Origin: Escherichia phage SP15
Sequence record: AP019559
Strand: one strand, 5' to 3'
Length of the DNA: 64,000 nt
The notes below the pieces were generated by a model. It ran no database searches. It was given only the letters and a program-made list of their open reading frames with translations, and was not told the DNA's origin. The translations under genes were made by a program, and so were the position numbers. Shown piece after piece: positions 4,637 through 63,948 of this stretch. How positions within the stretch are numbered: the first letter of the stretch is position 1; each line of letters opens with the position of its first letter.

Positions 4637-5389
4637 TTACACCTTCCCCATGTCTTTAAAGATGTCATAGAATGCTTTAGACTCAACAGAACGAACGTTA
4701 TCCATCAATTCGATCATTGAGAATGGGGCATTTTCGTATTTCTCATAGACTTCCATAAGGAGTGCTAGACCTGAGTCACCTTTAATGTCTTTCTGAGCTA
4801 TATCTCCGCAGATAATTAAACGGCAGTCTTGTCCTACACGAGTTAGGAGACAAATCATTGCCTCAACGGAAATATTCTGAGCTTCATCGACAATTACATA
4901 GGAGTTGTTGAAAGTTCTGCCACGAGCATGTTCGATAGCCAAAAATTTAATTTTCTGACGTTCGACATATCCCTTATAGGCATGTTCGCCGATGGCCCAT
5001 TTCATACCATCAGCTATTGGCTCCAACCAAGGCTCTAGCTTTTCTGCTAGATCACCAGGAAGCATACCAAGAGACTTACCTAGAGGTTCATTAGGACGTA
5101 CGAGGATCACTTGCTCAATATCTGAGTGAATGTCTACGAGTTCCTGAGCTGCAAGAACGGACGGAATAAAGGTTTTACCAGTACCTGGCTCACCGATACC
5201 CACAGTCACTGTGTTGTTCTTGATCATATTGATATATGATTTTTGCTCGCGGTTTTTACCTACTAGGGATTTAGCAACTGGGTTAGCGTAATCATTAGAA
5301 AAATCAGCCTGAATTACGTTATTCTCATACTTGTTGCCACGCTTTCTTGAACCATTGCGGTTCTCTCTTTTTTGACGTGCTTTTCCCAT
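4637..5389 (-). CDS. phoH: PhoH-like ATPase
   Basis: Walker A GEPGTGKTF, Walker B IVDEAQN; start placed at ATG preceded by AGGAG. Confidence 0.85.
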   Translation of the reverse strand: MGKARQKRENRNGSRKRGNKYENNVIQADFSNDYANPVAKSLVGKNREQKSYINMIKNNTVTVGIGEPGTGKTFIPSVLAAQELVDIHSDIEQVILVRPNEPLGKSLGMLPGDLAEKLEPWLEPIADGMKWAIGEHAYKGYVERQKIKFLAIEHARGRTFNNSYVIVDEAQNISVEAMICLLTRVGQDCRLIICGDIAQKDIKGDSGLALLMEVYEKYENAPFSMIELMDNVRSVESKAFYDIFKDMGKV

Positions 5390-5683
5390 AAATAACACTC
5401 CTATAGTGTACTTCGCTAACAGAGGATCAACAAAAAGATCTTGTTTATCAACTTACAAATATATTATACCAATATATACAGTAAAAAGCAACTACAATTT
5501 TAAATAAGCCTATGATATTGCATTTAAATAAAAAATTTGCTTGCTTTTAACGTGAGATGTGTGATACTAGATAATCATTTTATATCGCGTGCACGAGTGC
5601 GTGATTATACAATTTTTAATAGAGATTGGCAAATAAAATTTTTTGACTCAGATCATGTTACAGAACTTTATAGTAAAATATTG

Positions 5684-11097: not shown

Positions 11098-11550
11098 ATG
11101 TCGCTCACACAACAAGAACTTTTAGATAATTTCCGATATGAAGATGGAAAATTATTTAGAACCACAGGAAGAAATGCAGGCAAGGAATGTTGTGTTTCAA
11201 CGGGAAATGGGTATTATCGTATTTCTCTAGGTAGTAAAACTATGCTCCGACACAGAGCCATCTTCTTAATGCATCATGGTTATCTCCCTGATTTAGTAGA
11301 TCATGAGAATACTATAAAAGGTGATGATCGTATTGAAAATCTTAGAGAGCAGACAGTATCCGGTAATCTAAGAAATATCAAATATAAGAAAGGAATGCAT
11401 GTTTACCCTTCTGGTAGTAAGAACTGGCAAGTAGTATTTACTATTAACCGTAAACGTATAGTTAAAGGAACATATGACAACTATGAGGTTGCATGTTCTA
11501 TGGCCAAGATGTTTAGAGGTCAATTATACGGTAGGGAATCAATCCAGTAA
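11098..11550 (+). CDS. HNH homing endonuclease (HNH_3 type)
   Basis: Motif LVDHENTIKGDDRIENLRE; start at ATG preceded by GGAGG; free-standing in an intergenic position. Confidence 0.7.
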   Translation: MSLTQQELLDNFRYEDGKLFRTTGRNAGKECCVSTGNGYYRISLGSKTMLRHRAIFLMHHGYLPDLVDHENTIKGDDRIENLREQTVSGNLRNIKYKKGMHVYPSGSKNWQVVFTINRKRIVKGTYDNYEVACSMAKMFRGQLYGRESIQ

Positions 11551-20390: not shown

Positions 20391-20407
20391 TCTGGTAAAT
20401 TAAACCT

Positions 20408-20440
20408 AAGGGGAGGGGGCTATGCTCCTTCCCCTTTTTG
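20408..20440 (+). terminator. Rho-independent terminator
   Basis: GC-rich hairpin AAGGGGAGGGGG...CCTTCCCCTT followed by TTTTT. Confidence 0.6.
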
Positions 20441-20472
20441 CATTTAGAAGGCACGAAAGCGTGCAAAGGAGA

Positions 20473-21945
20473 ATGACCTTGTTTAACGTGCAAGCTGTAG
20501 TGTTGAAGATGCTTCTAGCTTCCGAACAGAAGCAAATAGCATTGGAAACATTCTCAAAACTGCATAAAGATCATTTTAATGACGCTTTCTCCTCAATTTA
20601 CCAAGCCGTCCAGAATTATTATAAAAAATATAACACAATGCCGTCCATTGACGCACTGATGCTTGAGGCTAATAGGAACGCCCGCCTTTCTCAAGCTCTA
20701 GTCGTTTTAGCTAACACTCAAATTCCAGAAGTTAGCATGGAACAGGCACTTGAAGTCCTAGAAGCCGAGTATACACAGGATTTATTCCTGAAGCTTCTAG
20801 AAACAGACGTGCTTCAAGATTTAACAATGCTGGATCAGGGAGAAATTCTTAACCGAGTTGCCTCCCTTCACTTAAAATTAGAAGAGAAAGTAACGAATAC
20901 TGGAAAAGTATTCAACGCAGATAACATGCGTATTTTCCAGAGAGAAGAAGATACCAAACTGAACTTAATCGCTCTTGGTATCTGTAATGAGTTCGACGCT
21001 CAAATTGGTTTAGCTCGCACAGAAACGTTACTGCTTGGTGGTTGGCGTGGTACTGGTAAATCCATTATCTGTTCAAACATACAGGTTCAGCAATATTTGA
21101 ATGGGGATATTGCTCCATACTTCTCAATTGAGATGAAAGAACATGAAGTATTTAGACGTAATCTAGCCATGTTAGCTGGTGTATCCGCACTAGCAATGCG
21201 TAATAATACTCTAGAAGGCGCAGCTCTGTTGAGATTAGCCAGAACTAGAGCTAGGATGTTTAATGGTGGTGAAGAGCTTTTCGATAACTTCGTTAAACAG
21301 TACACAATGGCTAAGATGAGTGATTTCTACGATATGGAAAGTAAGCTAATAGAAGGGTATGAACTACATACTCCTATGATTATTGTTTATGATCCTGAGC
21401 TGTCTATTACAACAGTTGACGTAGAATTAAATAAATTAGTTGCTAGATATGGGGATAAAGTTACAGTAGCTTTACTGGACTATATTAACCAAACCCGACT
21501 TCCAGATTCTAAAACCATTGATATGTATGACTGGAAAGAACAGATGGTTGTTAGCTCGTCTTTCAAATCTATCTGCCAGAAACATAACGTGGCTGGCGTA
21601 GCTCCTTACCAGATCGATCAAGATGGTAGAACACGTATGTCAAAAGGGATTCTTGATTCCGCAGACATGGCTGCTAATCTTAATGCTGCAAAAGCTGATA
21701 ATGGTCAAGGTGCTATTATGTTTGACTTCGTTAAGACTCGTTCTTCTGATAGCGTGAAGTTTATGCCTAAAATGAACTGGGAAACCCTGCGGATGGATAA
21801 TACTACCAACCTAGCAATGGAAGATATATCTCAAATGGAAGCTGAGTTCGTTATCCCTATTGAGAAGGATAAGCCGGCTCAATCTAAACGTGCTAAGAAA
21901 GACAAAGCTGAAAATTCAACAGGTGAACAGGCCAGCGATATATGA
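20473..21945 (+). CDS. DnaB-like replicative DNA helicase
   Basis: Walker A GGWRGTGKSIICSN; start uncertain (ORF open from 20422). Confidence 0.7.
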   Translation: MTLFNVQAVVLKMLLASEQKQIALETFSKLHKDHFNDAFSSIYQAVQNYYKKYNTMPSIDALMLEANRNARLSQALVVLANTQIPEVSMEQALEVLEAEYTQDLFLKLLETDVLQDLTMLDQGEILNRVASLHLKLEEKVTNTGKVFNADNMRIFQREEDTKLNLIALGICNEFDAQIGLARTETLLLGGWRGTGKSIICSNIQVQQYLNGDIAPYFSIEMKEHEVFRRNLAMLAGVSALAMRNNTLEGAALLRLARTRARMFNGGEELFDNFVKQYTMAKMSDFYDMESKLIEGYELHTPMIIVYDPELSITTVDVELNKLVARYGDKVTVALLDYINQTRLPDSKTIDMYDWKEQMVVSSSFKSICQKHNVAGVAPYQIDQDGRTRMSKGILDSADMAANLNAAKADNGQGAIMFDFVKTRSSDSVKFMPKMNWETLRMDNTTNLAMEDISQMEAEFVIPIEKDKPAQSKRAKKDKAENSTGEQASDI

Positions 21946-22475
21946 TAACACAGGAAAGGCTAAAAGAGTTATTTGATTACTCCCCAGAAACTGGGGAGTT
22001 TACTAGAAAAGTATCTAGAGGTAATCAGAAAGCTGGTAGTATAATAACCAGAAAAGACTCTAACGGTTATATAATTATTGGTATAGATGGCAAGGGTTAC
22101 AAAGCCCATCGGATGGCTTTTCTATTTATGGAAAATACATTGCCGGAAAAAGTAGACCATGTAAACAGAATACCTTTTGATAATAGGTGGTGTAATCTAA
22201 GAGACGCCACAGCTCAGGAAAATAGTAGAAATAAAACCGCATGTAGTAAGTCTGGATATTTGGGAGTTGCTTGGGATATCGAAAAACAAAGATGGAGAGT
22301 TCAAGTAAGAGACTCTAATAGCACTCTTAAAAATGGTGGCAGATTTAAGTATGAAGAGCTAGAGCTAGCTGTAAATTCAGCAAATATATTAAGGACTAAG
22401 TTACATGGAGAACGTGCTGTTATAGAAATTTTTGATACATCCAATTATCCTTCACTGGAGGAGTTAAATTCATGA
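21942..22475 (+). CDS. HNH homing endonuclease with AP2-like DNA-binding domain
   Basis: VDHVNRIPFDNRWCNLRDAT and SGYLGVAWD; ATGA overlaps with both flanking genes; paralog of 63412-63948. Confidence 0.75.
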   Translation: MITQERLKELFDYSPETGEFTRKVSRGNQKAGSIITRKDSNGYIIIGIDGKGYKAHRMAFLFMENTLPEKVDHVNRIPFDNRWCNLRDATAQENSRNKTACSKSGYLGVAWDIEKQRWRVQVRDSNSTLKNGGRFKYEELELAVNSANILRTKLHGERAVIEIFDTSNYPSLEELNS

Positions 22476-23362
22476 GTCGAATAACAGAATTACTTGATCT
22501 TAAGGGAATTGAGTATAAAGATACTGGTGGAGATATTTTAATCTGTTGTCTCAATCCAGATCATGACGATAAACACCCAAGTTTGCGTATTGACCCTGAA
22601 ACAGGTATTATGCACTGCTTGAGTTGTGGCTTCGGTAAAGGTATACCGAGCATTTACCATTATTTTAATGAGACTCAGTACCGACAGTCCCCAAGGCTAT
22701 CACAAGTACGTAAAAAGATTTCAGAGATTAGGAATGGATCAACGAATCTTGCAATTCCTGAATCTGCTTACCTTTTTGAAGGTGATTTCCGAGGTATAAG
22801 TTCTAAGACCTTGAAGAAATATTTTGCTTTCCAACACCAAGCAGACTGGGAAGGCAGAATCGTATTCCCAATCACAGATGCTGTTGGACGCAATATCCTA
22901 TTTTTGGGTCGTTCTATAAACAGTTCTGCCCCTCCTAAATACTTAGTAAAACCAAAACAAGTTTCACCGCCAATTTTTCCTGTACGATATAATACTCCAG
23001 TTCTTATTCTAGTTGAAGGCATCTTTGATATGCTGAACCTAGAGGATAATGGTATAGACTACGCTTCTTGCTGCTTTGGTACACATCAGTTTACTTCGGA
23101 TAACATTGCAGATAAGTTCAGTCCTTATATTATTGCCGGTGTAAAAGTTGTTGTTATCTTACTAGATAATGATGCTTCTGGTAATAAAGCTGCACAAGCA
23201 TTGGCCAAGCTAATTCGTACAAAAACGCGTTTAACACCTGTAGTTGCTAACTTTCTTCTGCCTGAAGGTAAAGACCCGGGTGACTTAAATAAAGAAGAGA
23301 TTGATATGTTAGCAAAACGTATTGAAATTTTAGTTGCTGAATCGCTTAAAGATTTGGTATAA
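22472..23362 (+). CDS. DNA primase (zinc-binding domain plus TOPRIM)
   Basis: CCLNPDHDDKHPSLRIDPETGIMHCLSCG zinc motif; TOPRIM LVEGIFDML and LLDNDASG. Confidence 0.8.
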   Translation: MSRITELLDLKGIEYKDTGGDILICCLNPDHDDKHPSLRIDPETGIMHCLSCGFGKGIPSIYHYFNETQYRQSPRLSQVRKKISEIRNGSTNLAIPESAYLFEGDFRGISSKTLKKYFAFQHQADWEGRIVFPITDAVGRNILFLGRSINSSAPPKYLVKPKQVSPPIFPVRYNTPVLILVEGIFDMLNLEDNGIDYASCCFGTHQFTSDNIADKFSPYIIAGVKVVVILLDNDASGNKAAQALAKLIRTKTRLTPVVANFLLPEGKDPGDLNKEEIDMLAKRIEILVAESLKDLV

Positions 23363-23388
23363 TAGTCCTAAATAACTGAGGAGCTACT

Positions 23389-23718
23389 ATGGAATATGTA
23401 TATATTTACGAGGATGTTCCAGTATACGATAGTATAACACACGAAGAGGTTAAACTAGAGCTGTTTACAGTACTAGAGTCCCTTAATAAACGGAAGGATT
23501 TTCATTTATTTGGTGATCCTAAATTACCTGCATCTTATATTTTCTTTAAAGTAAAAGATACAGGTCAAGAGGTGTATCTAACTTATGATTGGGCTGTTGT
23601 AGAAAATACTGAGCAATCTATGAAAGTGTTAGGTGCTTTTCTGCGTATAGTTGAAGAATTTCAGGCACTAGAAAAGCAGCGCAATGAAATGCGTAAATTA
23701 CTACATACCTATAAATAG
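23389..23718 (+). CDS. Hypothetical protein
   Basis: 109-aa ORF with RBS GAGGAG. Confidence 0.5.
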   Translation: MEYVYIYEDVPVYDSITHEEVKLELFTVLESLNKRKDFHLFGDPKLPASYIFFKVKDTGQEVYLTYDWAVVENTEQSMKVLGAFLRIVEEFQALEKQRNEMRKLLHTYK

Positions 23719-23721
23719 TAT

Positions 23722-23750
23722 TTGCTATTATCCCAATATTTTGATATAAT
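23722..23750 (+). promoter_or_regulatory. T5-type early promoter (TTGCTA, 17 nt, TATAAT)
   Basis: Consensus hexamers upstream of DNA polymerase gene. Confidence 0.55.
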
Positions 23751-23811
23751 ATATTGGTAAGTTAGAGAAGAAACACTGAAGTTATACTTACTTACCAAGA
23801 GGAGATTAAAT

Positions 23812-63014: not shown

Positions 63015-63205
63015 TGGAAGTAGTAGCTACACTAATAGTAATACTAGTCTGGGCAACTTTCATTGTTTCTTATAACGCGTATGTTCGCCTAAAAACTCTA
63101 GAAGCTCAAGTAAAACAACAACAATTTGCTCTAGAAAAATTAGTAGAACTCCAACGTTGTGATAGTACCCGTATTCTGCAAATTGAGGGGGAATTAGATG
63201 TTTAG
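63011..63205 (+). CDS. Small membrane protein (64 aa), N-terminal TM helix plus coiled-coil tail
   Basis: Start overlaps previous stop (ATGA). Confidence 0.45.
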   Translation: MMEVVATLIVILVWATFIVSYNAYVRLKTLEAQVKQQQFALEKLVELQRCDSTRILQIEGELDV

Positions 63206-63422
63206 TATTATAATTGCTTTTATTATCGGGGTACTTGCGGGAATTTTCGGAATGACTGCGGCTATTAACAAGCATCGTAAGTATACTGCGGAAGTATCGC
63301 GGGAGATTGCGGAAAGGGAGCGGAAGTTTGACGAGAAACGTGCGGAGTTCGAACGAGAGTGGTCGGATGGTTCTCGGGCGTCGCGGAAGAGATTTCGGGC
63401 TAAGGTGAGTGATGAAGAATAA
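63198..63422 (+). CDS. Small membrane protein (74 aa), N-terminal TM helix plus charged tail
   Basis: Overlaps previous ORF end; hydrophobic N-terminus, Arg/Glu-rich C-terminus. Confidence 0.45.
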   Translation: MFSIIIAFIIGVLAGIFGMTAAINKHRKYTAEVSREIAERERKFDEKRAEFEREWSDGSRASRKRFRAKVSDEE

Positions 63423-63948
63423 CTTAAGTATACAGGACATACAAGAAGCATTTGCTTATGATCCCGAAACCGGGGTTATTACCTGGAAAAGTGGTAGTCG
63501 TAAAGGTAAAGAAGCTGGTACTTTAAATAGAGGATATAGGCAGCTTAAGTACAAAGGGTTTAGAGCTTATGCACATCAAATAGCTTTTGTTATTATGGAA
63601 AATAGATGGCCCGAGGAATGCGTTGACCATATTGACAGGAATAAACTAAATAATAGATGGTCAAATCTGCGAGAAGCTACAATTACGGAAAATAATCATA
63701 ACGGTAGAACTTCAAAAACATCCTCGGGCTATCTAAATGTTACGTGGCATAAAGGACTCCAGAAATGGATGGTAAGATTACACGACAAACATGGACTTAT
63801 AAAGGGTACTACTGAGTATTTTTCCTACGATAGATTGGAAGATGCAGTAAATTATGCGAATTTACTAAGAAAGAAATTTCATGGCAGCTTTGCAGTACAA
63901 GAGGCATTCAAAGGGAACATACCAGATGTTGTTCAGTTAAACAGTTAA
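63412..63948 (+). CDS. HNH homing endonuclease with AP2-like domain
   Basis: VDHIDRNKLNNRWSNLREAT and SGYLNVTWH; paralog of 21942-22475. Confidence 0.75.
   Translation: MKNNLSIQDIQEAFAYDPETGVITWKSGSRKGKEAGTLNRGYRQLKYKGFRAYAHQIAFVIMENRWPEECVDHIDRNKLNNRWSNLREATITENNHNGRTSKTSSGYLNVTWHKGLQKWMVRLHDKHGLIKGTTEYFSYDRLEDAVNYANLLRKKFHGSFAVQEAFKGNIPDVVQLNS

Follow-up and report, generated by a model that had tools for sequence, protein, structure and literature searches.

Introduction

I-HmuI (PDB 1U3E), from the Bacillus phage SPO1, is an intron-encoded HNH nicking homing endonuclease that cuts occupied and empty alleles alike. The gene hegJ of T5-like phages encodes an endonuclease with an I-HmuI-like active site, but the two differ in setting and in DNA-binding equipment: I-HmuI lies inside a group I intron and carries helical/HTH C-terminal DNA-binding modules, whereas hegJ is free-standing and its product carries an AP2 domain.

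The HNN-AP2 endonucleases of the Xanthomonas phages Xp10, OP1 and Xop411 share with hegJ an HNN core containing DNR, NLR and EN boxes, the absence of Cys dyads, and a C-terminal AP2 domain; as in T5-like phages, their genes occur as several dispersed copies per genome, some of them degenerate (PMC2248197). The Xanthomonas phage genes yielded neither conserved flanks nor defined empty sites, whereas hegJ has an exact site and a clear flanking footprint. The same paper, from 2007, treated hegJ as a homing endonuclease gene (HEG) of the HNN-AP2 type, and reported that it is frameshifted in the T5 ATCC strain (PMC2248197).

The Seg and Mob families of T4-like phages (e.g. SegB) are, like hegJ, found between conserved genes and sporadically distributed; in mixed infections they are preferentially inherited, with co-conversion of their flanks (PMC2330249). 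SegB belongs to the GIY-YIG family and its homing has been shown experimentally, whereas hegJ encodes an HNH protein whose homing we infer from sequence.

A 2023 paper names homing endonuclease genes as the chief cause of differences between T5-like genomes (PMC10644984). The F-Tfl HNH endonucleases of T5, hegE included, resemble hegJ in being free-standing and sporadic among T5-like phages. [quoted passage not shown] 2004, as cited in PMC10644984; they belong to other HNH subfamilies and have little or no similarity to hegJ. The closest hegJ paralog in T5 is hegE (F-TflV), which is 56% identical over its full length and shares the HNN-AP2 layout and the MITQERLKEL N-terminus, but lies at a different locus (in the early region) and lacks the LEELNS tail.

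Here we analyze the helicase-primase junction of the window, a 64,000-nucleotide stretch of the Escherichia phage SP15 (AP019559), which represents a mosaic T5-like genome distinct from T5. We put at roughly 85% the probability that its hegJ is a free-standing HNN-AP2 homing endonuclease gene mobile between T5-like phages, with predicted nicking, target position and biased inheritance. As hegJ has been annotated in T5 for years, finding it adds little that is new; the practical gains are an empty site resolved to the base, a candidate target region comprising roughly the first 70 nt of the primase gene, and a natural set of alleles with swapped DNA-binding domains. The locus would offer a convenient system for studying both target choice by HNH-AP2 nickases and the entry of a selfish gene into an essential operon without a break in translational coupling.

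The helicase-primase junction is occupied by hegJ

The first-pass annotation had described an HNH gene wedged between helicase and primase genes with an ATGA overlap on each side, an arrangement that the coordinates of the open reading frames (ORFs) bear out:

20422..21945, + strand: replicative DnaB-like helicase (T5 D6); its stop shares ATGA 21942-21945 with the start of the endonuclease gene
21942..22475, + strand: hegJ-type free-standing HNH(HNN)-AP2 homing endonuclease gene, 177 aa (from ORF, Pfam and profile search)
22472..23362, + strand: DNA primase with DnaG-type zinc ribbon and Toprim; its start shares ATGA 22472-22475 with the stop of the endonuclease gene

Domain searches matched ORF 20422-21945 to the DnaB C-terminal helicase domain, ORF 22472-23362 to the DnaG zinc ribbon, primase core and Toprim, and residues 53-96 of the intervening ORF to Pfam HNH_3 (E 6e-8). 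The intervening ORF is the T5 gene hegJ, already annotated and of a well-known kind: the T5 reference record lists hegJ (T5.120, YP_006948.1) between D6 and pri as ‘putative H-N-H-endonuclease P-TflX’, the prefix ‘P-’ marking the product as putative. T5 hegJ has the same length (534 nt), ATGA overlaps, and position between the D6 helicase and primase genes, with 97.6% DNA and 98% protein identity to the window gene (three amino-acid differences). Over the whole helicase-HEG-primase segment T5 is 98.7% identical to the window at the DNA level, and the Salmonella phage GEC_vB_N7 is 99.1% identical from helicase to primase. Our search of the literature on hegJ, P-TflX and F-TflVIII found no biochemical study of the protein.

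Naming of the gene is inconsistent between records. The hegJ ortholog in the Gostya9 record (locus 2121-2654) is labelled ‘F-TflVIII’, a name that we reject for it, as it came by similarity from a DT57C gene that lies elsewhere; in T5 the numeral VIII belongs to hegH, and P-TflX is the product of hegJ.

hegJ encodes an I-HmuI-like core joined to an AP2 domain

The 177-residue product divides into four parts:

residues 1-34: N-terminal segment, common to all alleles at the site and identical among them
residues about 35-100: I-HmuI-like His-Me finger core, with D72-H73, N85 and N94
residues about 105-158: AP2 DNA-binding domain
residues 159-177: conserved tail

A search of a large protein collection with hegJ returned 113 relatives, many of them containing PF13392 and PF00847 (AP2) together. 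In an alignment of 70 relatives H73 is invariant, while D72, N85 and N94 are at least 90% conserved; the profile built from it matches I-HmuI (PDB 1U3E) over residues 28-118 (E 3e-8) and plant AP2 domains over residues 103-161, with WRI1 (E 1e-10) followed by TEM1 and ERF1. Single-sequence searches were less sensitive: the AP2 domain fell below threshold in Pfam (E 0.033), and phmmer with hegJ against PDB sequences gave only spurious repeat-protein matches, so that a profile search was needed instead. The AlphaFold model has a mean pLDDT of 95.6, and Foldseek returned matches for its AP2 half only.

The earlier HNH/AP2 domain call is thus correct. A core with a catalytic His and conserved Asn places the protein in His-Me finger/HNH group 2 (Pfam HNH_3, I-HmuI-like), and its C-terminal AP2 domain places it among the HNN-AP2 homing endonucleases. 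Because it contains only one I-HmuI-like active site, we predict that it acts as a nickase.

Most relatives have an empty site

The helicase-primase segment matches 443 phage records, most of which span 2411 bp instead of 2941 bp and have no gene between helicase and primase. Since only 69 records contain the complete left junction, from the end of the helicase gene into the start of the HEG, some 367 of about 436 T5-like records are scored as empty and approximately 69 as occupied, i.e. hegJ is absent from around five in six (about 84%). A count of 378 ‘full-coverage’ empty junctions is an upper bound, as it includes pieces joined across the insert (e.g. in NR01). The first-pass annotation had proposed comparing these junctions among relatives, and had named universal presence of the gene as the outcome that would speak against mobility; universal presence is ruled out. 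The missing segment is defined to the base:

21946..22475, + strand: segment missing from empty-site relatives, exactly 530 bp; its removal restores ...GATATATGAGT..., with the helicase stop over the primase start

The empty junction of poul124 reads GCGATATATGAGTAGAATAACAG, in which the helicase TGA overlaps the primase ATG, while the occupied junction of the window reads GCGATATATGA / TAACACAGG...AAATTCATGA / GTCGAATAACAG (slashes mark the two junctions); the 530-bp insert regenerates ATGA. Such exact presence or absence at a defined site among close relatives, here with a base-resolved junction, is a feature expected of a free-standing HEG.

The insert brings its own ribosome-binding site for the primase

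In empty genomes, a weak site (CAGGCCAGCGATAT-ATG) precedes the primase, whose start is coupled to the stop codon of the helicase. In occupied genomes the primase is preceded by CTGGAGGAGTTAAATTC-ATG, a strong Shine-Dalgarno sequence that lies within the last codons of the HEG and reads GGAGGAG or AGAGGAG in each allele examined:

22453..22471, + strand: 3' end of the HEG, codons LEELNS, with GGAGGAG about 8 nt before the primase ATG; Shine-Dalgarno sequence carried in by the insert

With ATGA at both ends and GGAGG supplied from the 3' end of the insert, insertion preserves translational coupling, as had been suggested from the overlaps. Because insertion took place precisely at the ATGA overlap of stop and start, the weak, helicase-coupled start of the primase would pass to the endonuclease and hold its expression at a low level; the final codons of the endonuclease gene would in turn provide the primase with the GGAGG ribosome site and a new ATGA, leaving the replication operon intact.

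A scan for promoters and terminators inside hegJ gave nothing above shuffled background, and helicase, hegJ and primase are for this reason most likely co-transcribed. Upstream, a strong terminator-like hairpin (20408-20436, + strand; 13-bp stem with 8 GC pairs, followed by a T-run) separates the D5 gene from the helicase. As the longest helicase ORF (start 20422) begins inside this hairpin, the real start probably lies 3' of it, at the ATG near 20473 (MTLFNV...) that several records give as the true start.

A recoded tract at the primase 5' end is linked to the insert

Sequence differences between occupied and empty genomes are concentrated immediately downstream of the insertion site:

22476..22541, + strand: recoded tract, the first 66 nt of the primase after ATGA, differing from empty-site genomes at 13 synonymous positions

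Between the window and poul124 (empty), 13 of the 35 mismatches in 2280 flanking nt fall within these 66 nt (P=8e-12 under uniformity), and the 132 nt upstream of the site contain none; all 13 are synonymous, as the first 44 residues of the primase are unchanged. Occupied and empty classes diverge by 16.7% in the tract and by 5.6% elsewhere. The 80-nt haplotype of the window type was found in 38 records, none of them with an empty site and all with a gene inserted there; both genera, Tequintavirus and Epseptimavirus, and three types of HEG allele are represented, although the records cannot be counted as phylogenetically independent. Relative to the window, S132 has 181 nucleotide differences in the flanks and one in the recoded tract.

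This linkage to the insert, which resembles co-conversion, suggests that the target lies within the 5' end of the primase gene, and makes the tract a candidate target, immunity or co-conversion region. Self-immunity through recoding is possible, but the tract may merely be co-converted donor sequence: NR01, SP01 and JLBYU43 are occupied, yet match empty genomes over part of the tract, with CTA at +19 among the matching positions, so recoding for self-protection is not strictly required, and a strict version of ‘immunity by recoding’ is weakened.

In the empty Salmonella phage KKP_3822, an in-frame, CT-rich insertion of 24 nt, TCTTTTTTTTTTTCTTCCTCCTCT, directly follows the primase ATGAGT, so that the primase start reads MSSFFFSSSSRITE... 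(locus about 2121-2160, equivalent to window 22472-22482). Its position coincides with the beginning of the putative target tract; a scar left by repair and an artefact of assembly are both conceivable.

hegJ and its flanks have discordant histories

Synonymous divergence of the endonuclease gene departs from that of its neighbors in both directions:

Window vs APCEc03: dS helicase 0.07; primase (rest) 0.07; endonuclease gene 0.38
S132 vs NR01: dS helicase 0.36; primase (rest) 0.27; endonuclease gene 0.06

The element and its flanks therefore do not share a single common history, and this discordance, together with the linked 66-nt tract, provides the history distinct from the flanks and the co-converted flanking sequence by which free-standing HEGs are recognized. 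Within hegJ dN/dS is 0.03-0.32, and the ORF is intact in 12 of 12 occupied genomes read, indicating that the protein is maintained by selection. The proposal of active or recent mobility in the first-pass annotation accordingly gains support from four sides: the majority of empty sites, the insert-linked recoded tract, the dS discordance and purifying selection, all of them features of sequence.

Homing would proceed as follows. During co-infection, the enzyme produced by a hegJ+ phage would recognize the insert-free helicase/primase junction of a relative, most likely within the first 70 nt or so of the primase, and nick or cut at this target; recombinational repair from the hegJ+ genome would then transfer the 530-bp insert to the recipient genome, together with flanking sequence of variable extent.

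The alleles found at the junction are modular. Their first 90 nt are 100% identical in nearly all, identity then falls abruptly to 43-70% in some, and the last 50 nt or so are again conserved. We distinguish three types of HNH core and four types of AP2 domain, which are 43-55% identical to one another at the protein level, with combinations (core letter, AP2 number) distributed as follows:

A1: window, T5
A2: JLBYU43, polluks
B4: S132, NR01
B3: Sen_I1
C3: T5_ev219

APCEc03 and SP01 have breakpoints within the HEG. As far as we have seen, this set of at least five combinations of HNH core and AP2 domain at one site is apparently undescribed, although it is only a mildly new point. A reading that we consider less likely than not is that the junction is contested: swapping of AP2 modules and synonymous recoding of the primase might then represent an arms race over target specificity, with the conserved ends serving as homology arms for cassette exchange between occupied genomes.

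Alternatives to homing

The divergence data bear directly on the possibility that hegJ is an immobile relic, i.e. an old insertion, vertically inherited and repeatedly lost by precise deletion, whose endonuclease is now inactive. Flanking ATGA repeats could mediate exact deletion, but repeats of 4 bp are ill suited to some 370 precise and independent losses. HildyBeyeler is empty but has a Shivani-like downstream haplotype, which would fit such a loss, and the T5 ATCC strain shows that degenerate copies exist; against this, every occupied genome examined retains an intact ORF under the dN/dS constraint given above. Vertical descent is also hard to reconcile with the nearly identical HEGs that S132 and NR01 carry in flanks diverged at dS 0.27-0.36, with the HEG dS of about 0.4 between the window and APCEc03 in nearly identical flanks, and with a recoded tract common to two genera. 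We regard this explanation as unlikely.

It is very unlikely that hegJ is instead a domesticated nuclease with a functional place in the operon, serving the replication of its own phage or making the site-specific nicks found in T5 virion DNA. Its tight translational coupling between helicase and primase, the purifying selection on it, and the specific nicks in T5-like virion DNA (PMC10644984) would all fit such a role. However, hegJ is missing in about 84% of T5-like phages, yet nicks are reported for BF23 and T5 relatives; the T5 nick consensus Pu-pGCGC (from features of the T5 record) is absent from both the junction and the recoded tract; the T5 ATCC strain is viable with a frameshifted hegJ (PMC2248197); and hegJ and its flanks differ in history. 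As a maker of the natural T5 nicks hegJ was rejected, because the junction lacks the GCGC consensus and most nick-bearing relatives lack the gene.

Finally, competitor exclusion as the main role, in which insert-free relatives in a co-infection would suffer nuclease damage to their essential primase gene and yield less progeny, with gene conversion as a by-product, is suggested by a candidate target region inside an essential replication gene and by the location of nuclease genes where genetic exchange between phages reaches its boundaries (Barth et al. 2023, as cited in PMC10644984), but it predicts the same footprints as homing, from which sequence cannot separate it, and several alleles competing for one site fit selfish turnover at least as well, leaving it extremely unlikely in our estimate.

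Related endonuclease genes turn over elsewhere in T5-like genomes

A phmmer search over all stop-to-stop ORFs of the window places just three in the HNH family, all of which fall in PHROG 99 (‘HNH endonuclease’): hegJ and two paralogs, both of which had been noted at first pass:

63412..63948, + strand: paralogous HNH_3 endonuclease gene; 42% aa identity to hegJ over the full length, E 4e-40
11098..11550, + strand: more divergent paralogous HNH_3 endonuclease gene; 30% aa identity, E 2e-15

The former had been called a close paralog, on the basis of motifs that are indeed present in both proteins; the paralogy holds, but at 42% identity ‘close’ does not. It overlaps the 3' end of ORF 63198-63422, has counterparts in ECOP18 and GEC_vB_N5, and replaces the 3' end of the upstream gene at the point where the match between window and T5 ends (63394). 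The latter is intergenic, 5' of the gene for the replication-origin-binding protein, in a region that measures about 605 nt in the window vs about 95 nt in saus47N and is covered to at least 80% in only 29 of 439 records. T5 lacks counterparts of both; conversely, the window lacks T5 hegH, located between nrdA and nrdB, and T5 hegI, which follows the gene for the origin-binding protein.

Relatives of hegJ at 62% and 48% identity occur at other gene junctions of T5-like contigs, with overlaps of 1-4 nt, one of them between nrdB and the next gene. In metagenomic T5-like contigs, the 48%-identical relative follows nrdB and a GIY-YIG/NUMOD3 (I-TevI-like) gene follows thymidylate synthase (about 4873-5646 in one such contig locus), so that two unrelated homing endonuclease families share a 2-kb stretch of the nucleotide-metabolism operon.

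Shivani, HildyBeyeler, VSe12 and SHSML-45 contain a further HNH gene of 582 nt that lies 5' of the helicase and overlaps its start (926-1507 in the Shivani and HildyBeyeler loci); the corresponding region of the window, 20391-20480, is empty. HildyBeyeler has this upstream gene and lacks hegJ.

Downstream of the primase, window positions 23363-23811 contain a 109-aa ORF (23389-23718, + strand; phrog_35630, E 3e-68) between primase and DNA polymerase. ESCO40 and JLBYU43 share this extra ORF, while primase and polymerase are just 62 nt apart in T5, DT571/2 and most relatives, making this ORF a second presence/absence polymorphism about 900 nt from hegJ.
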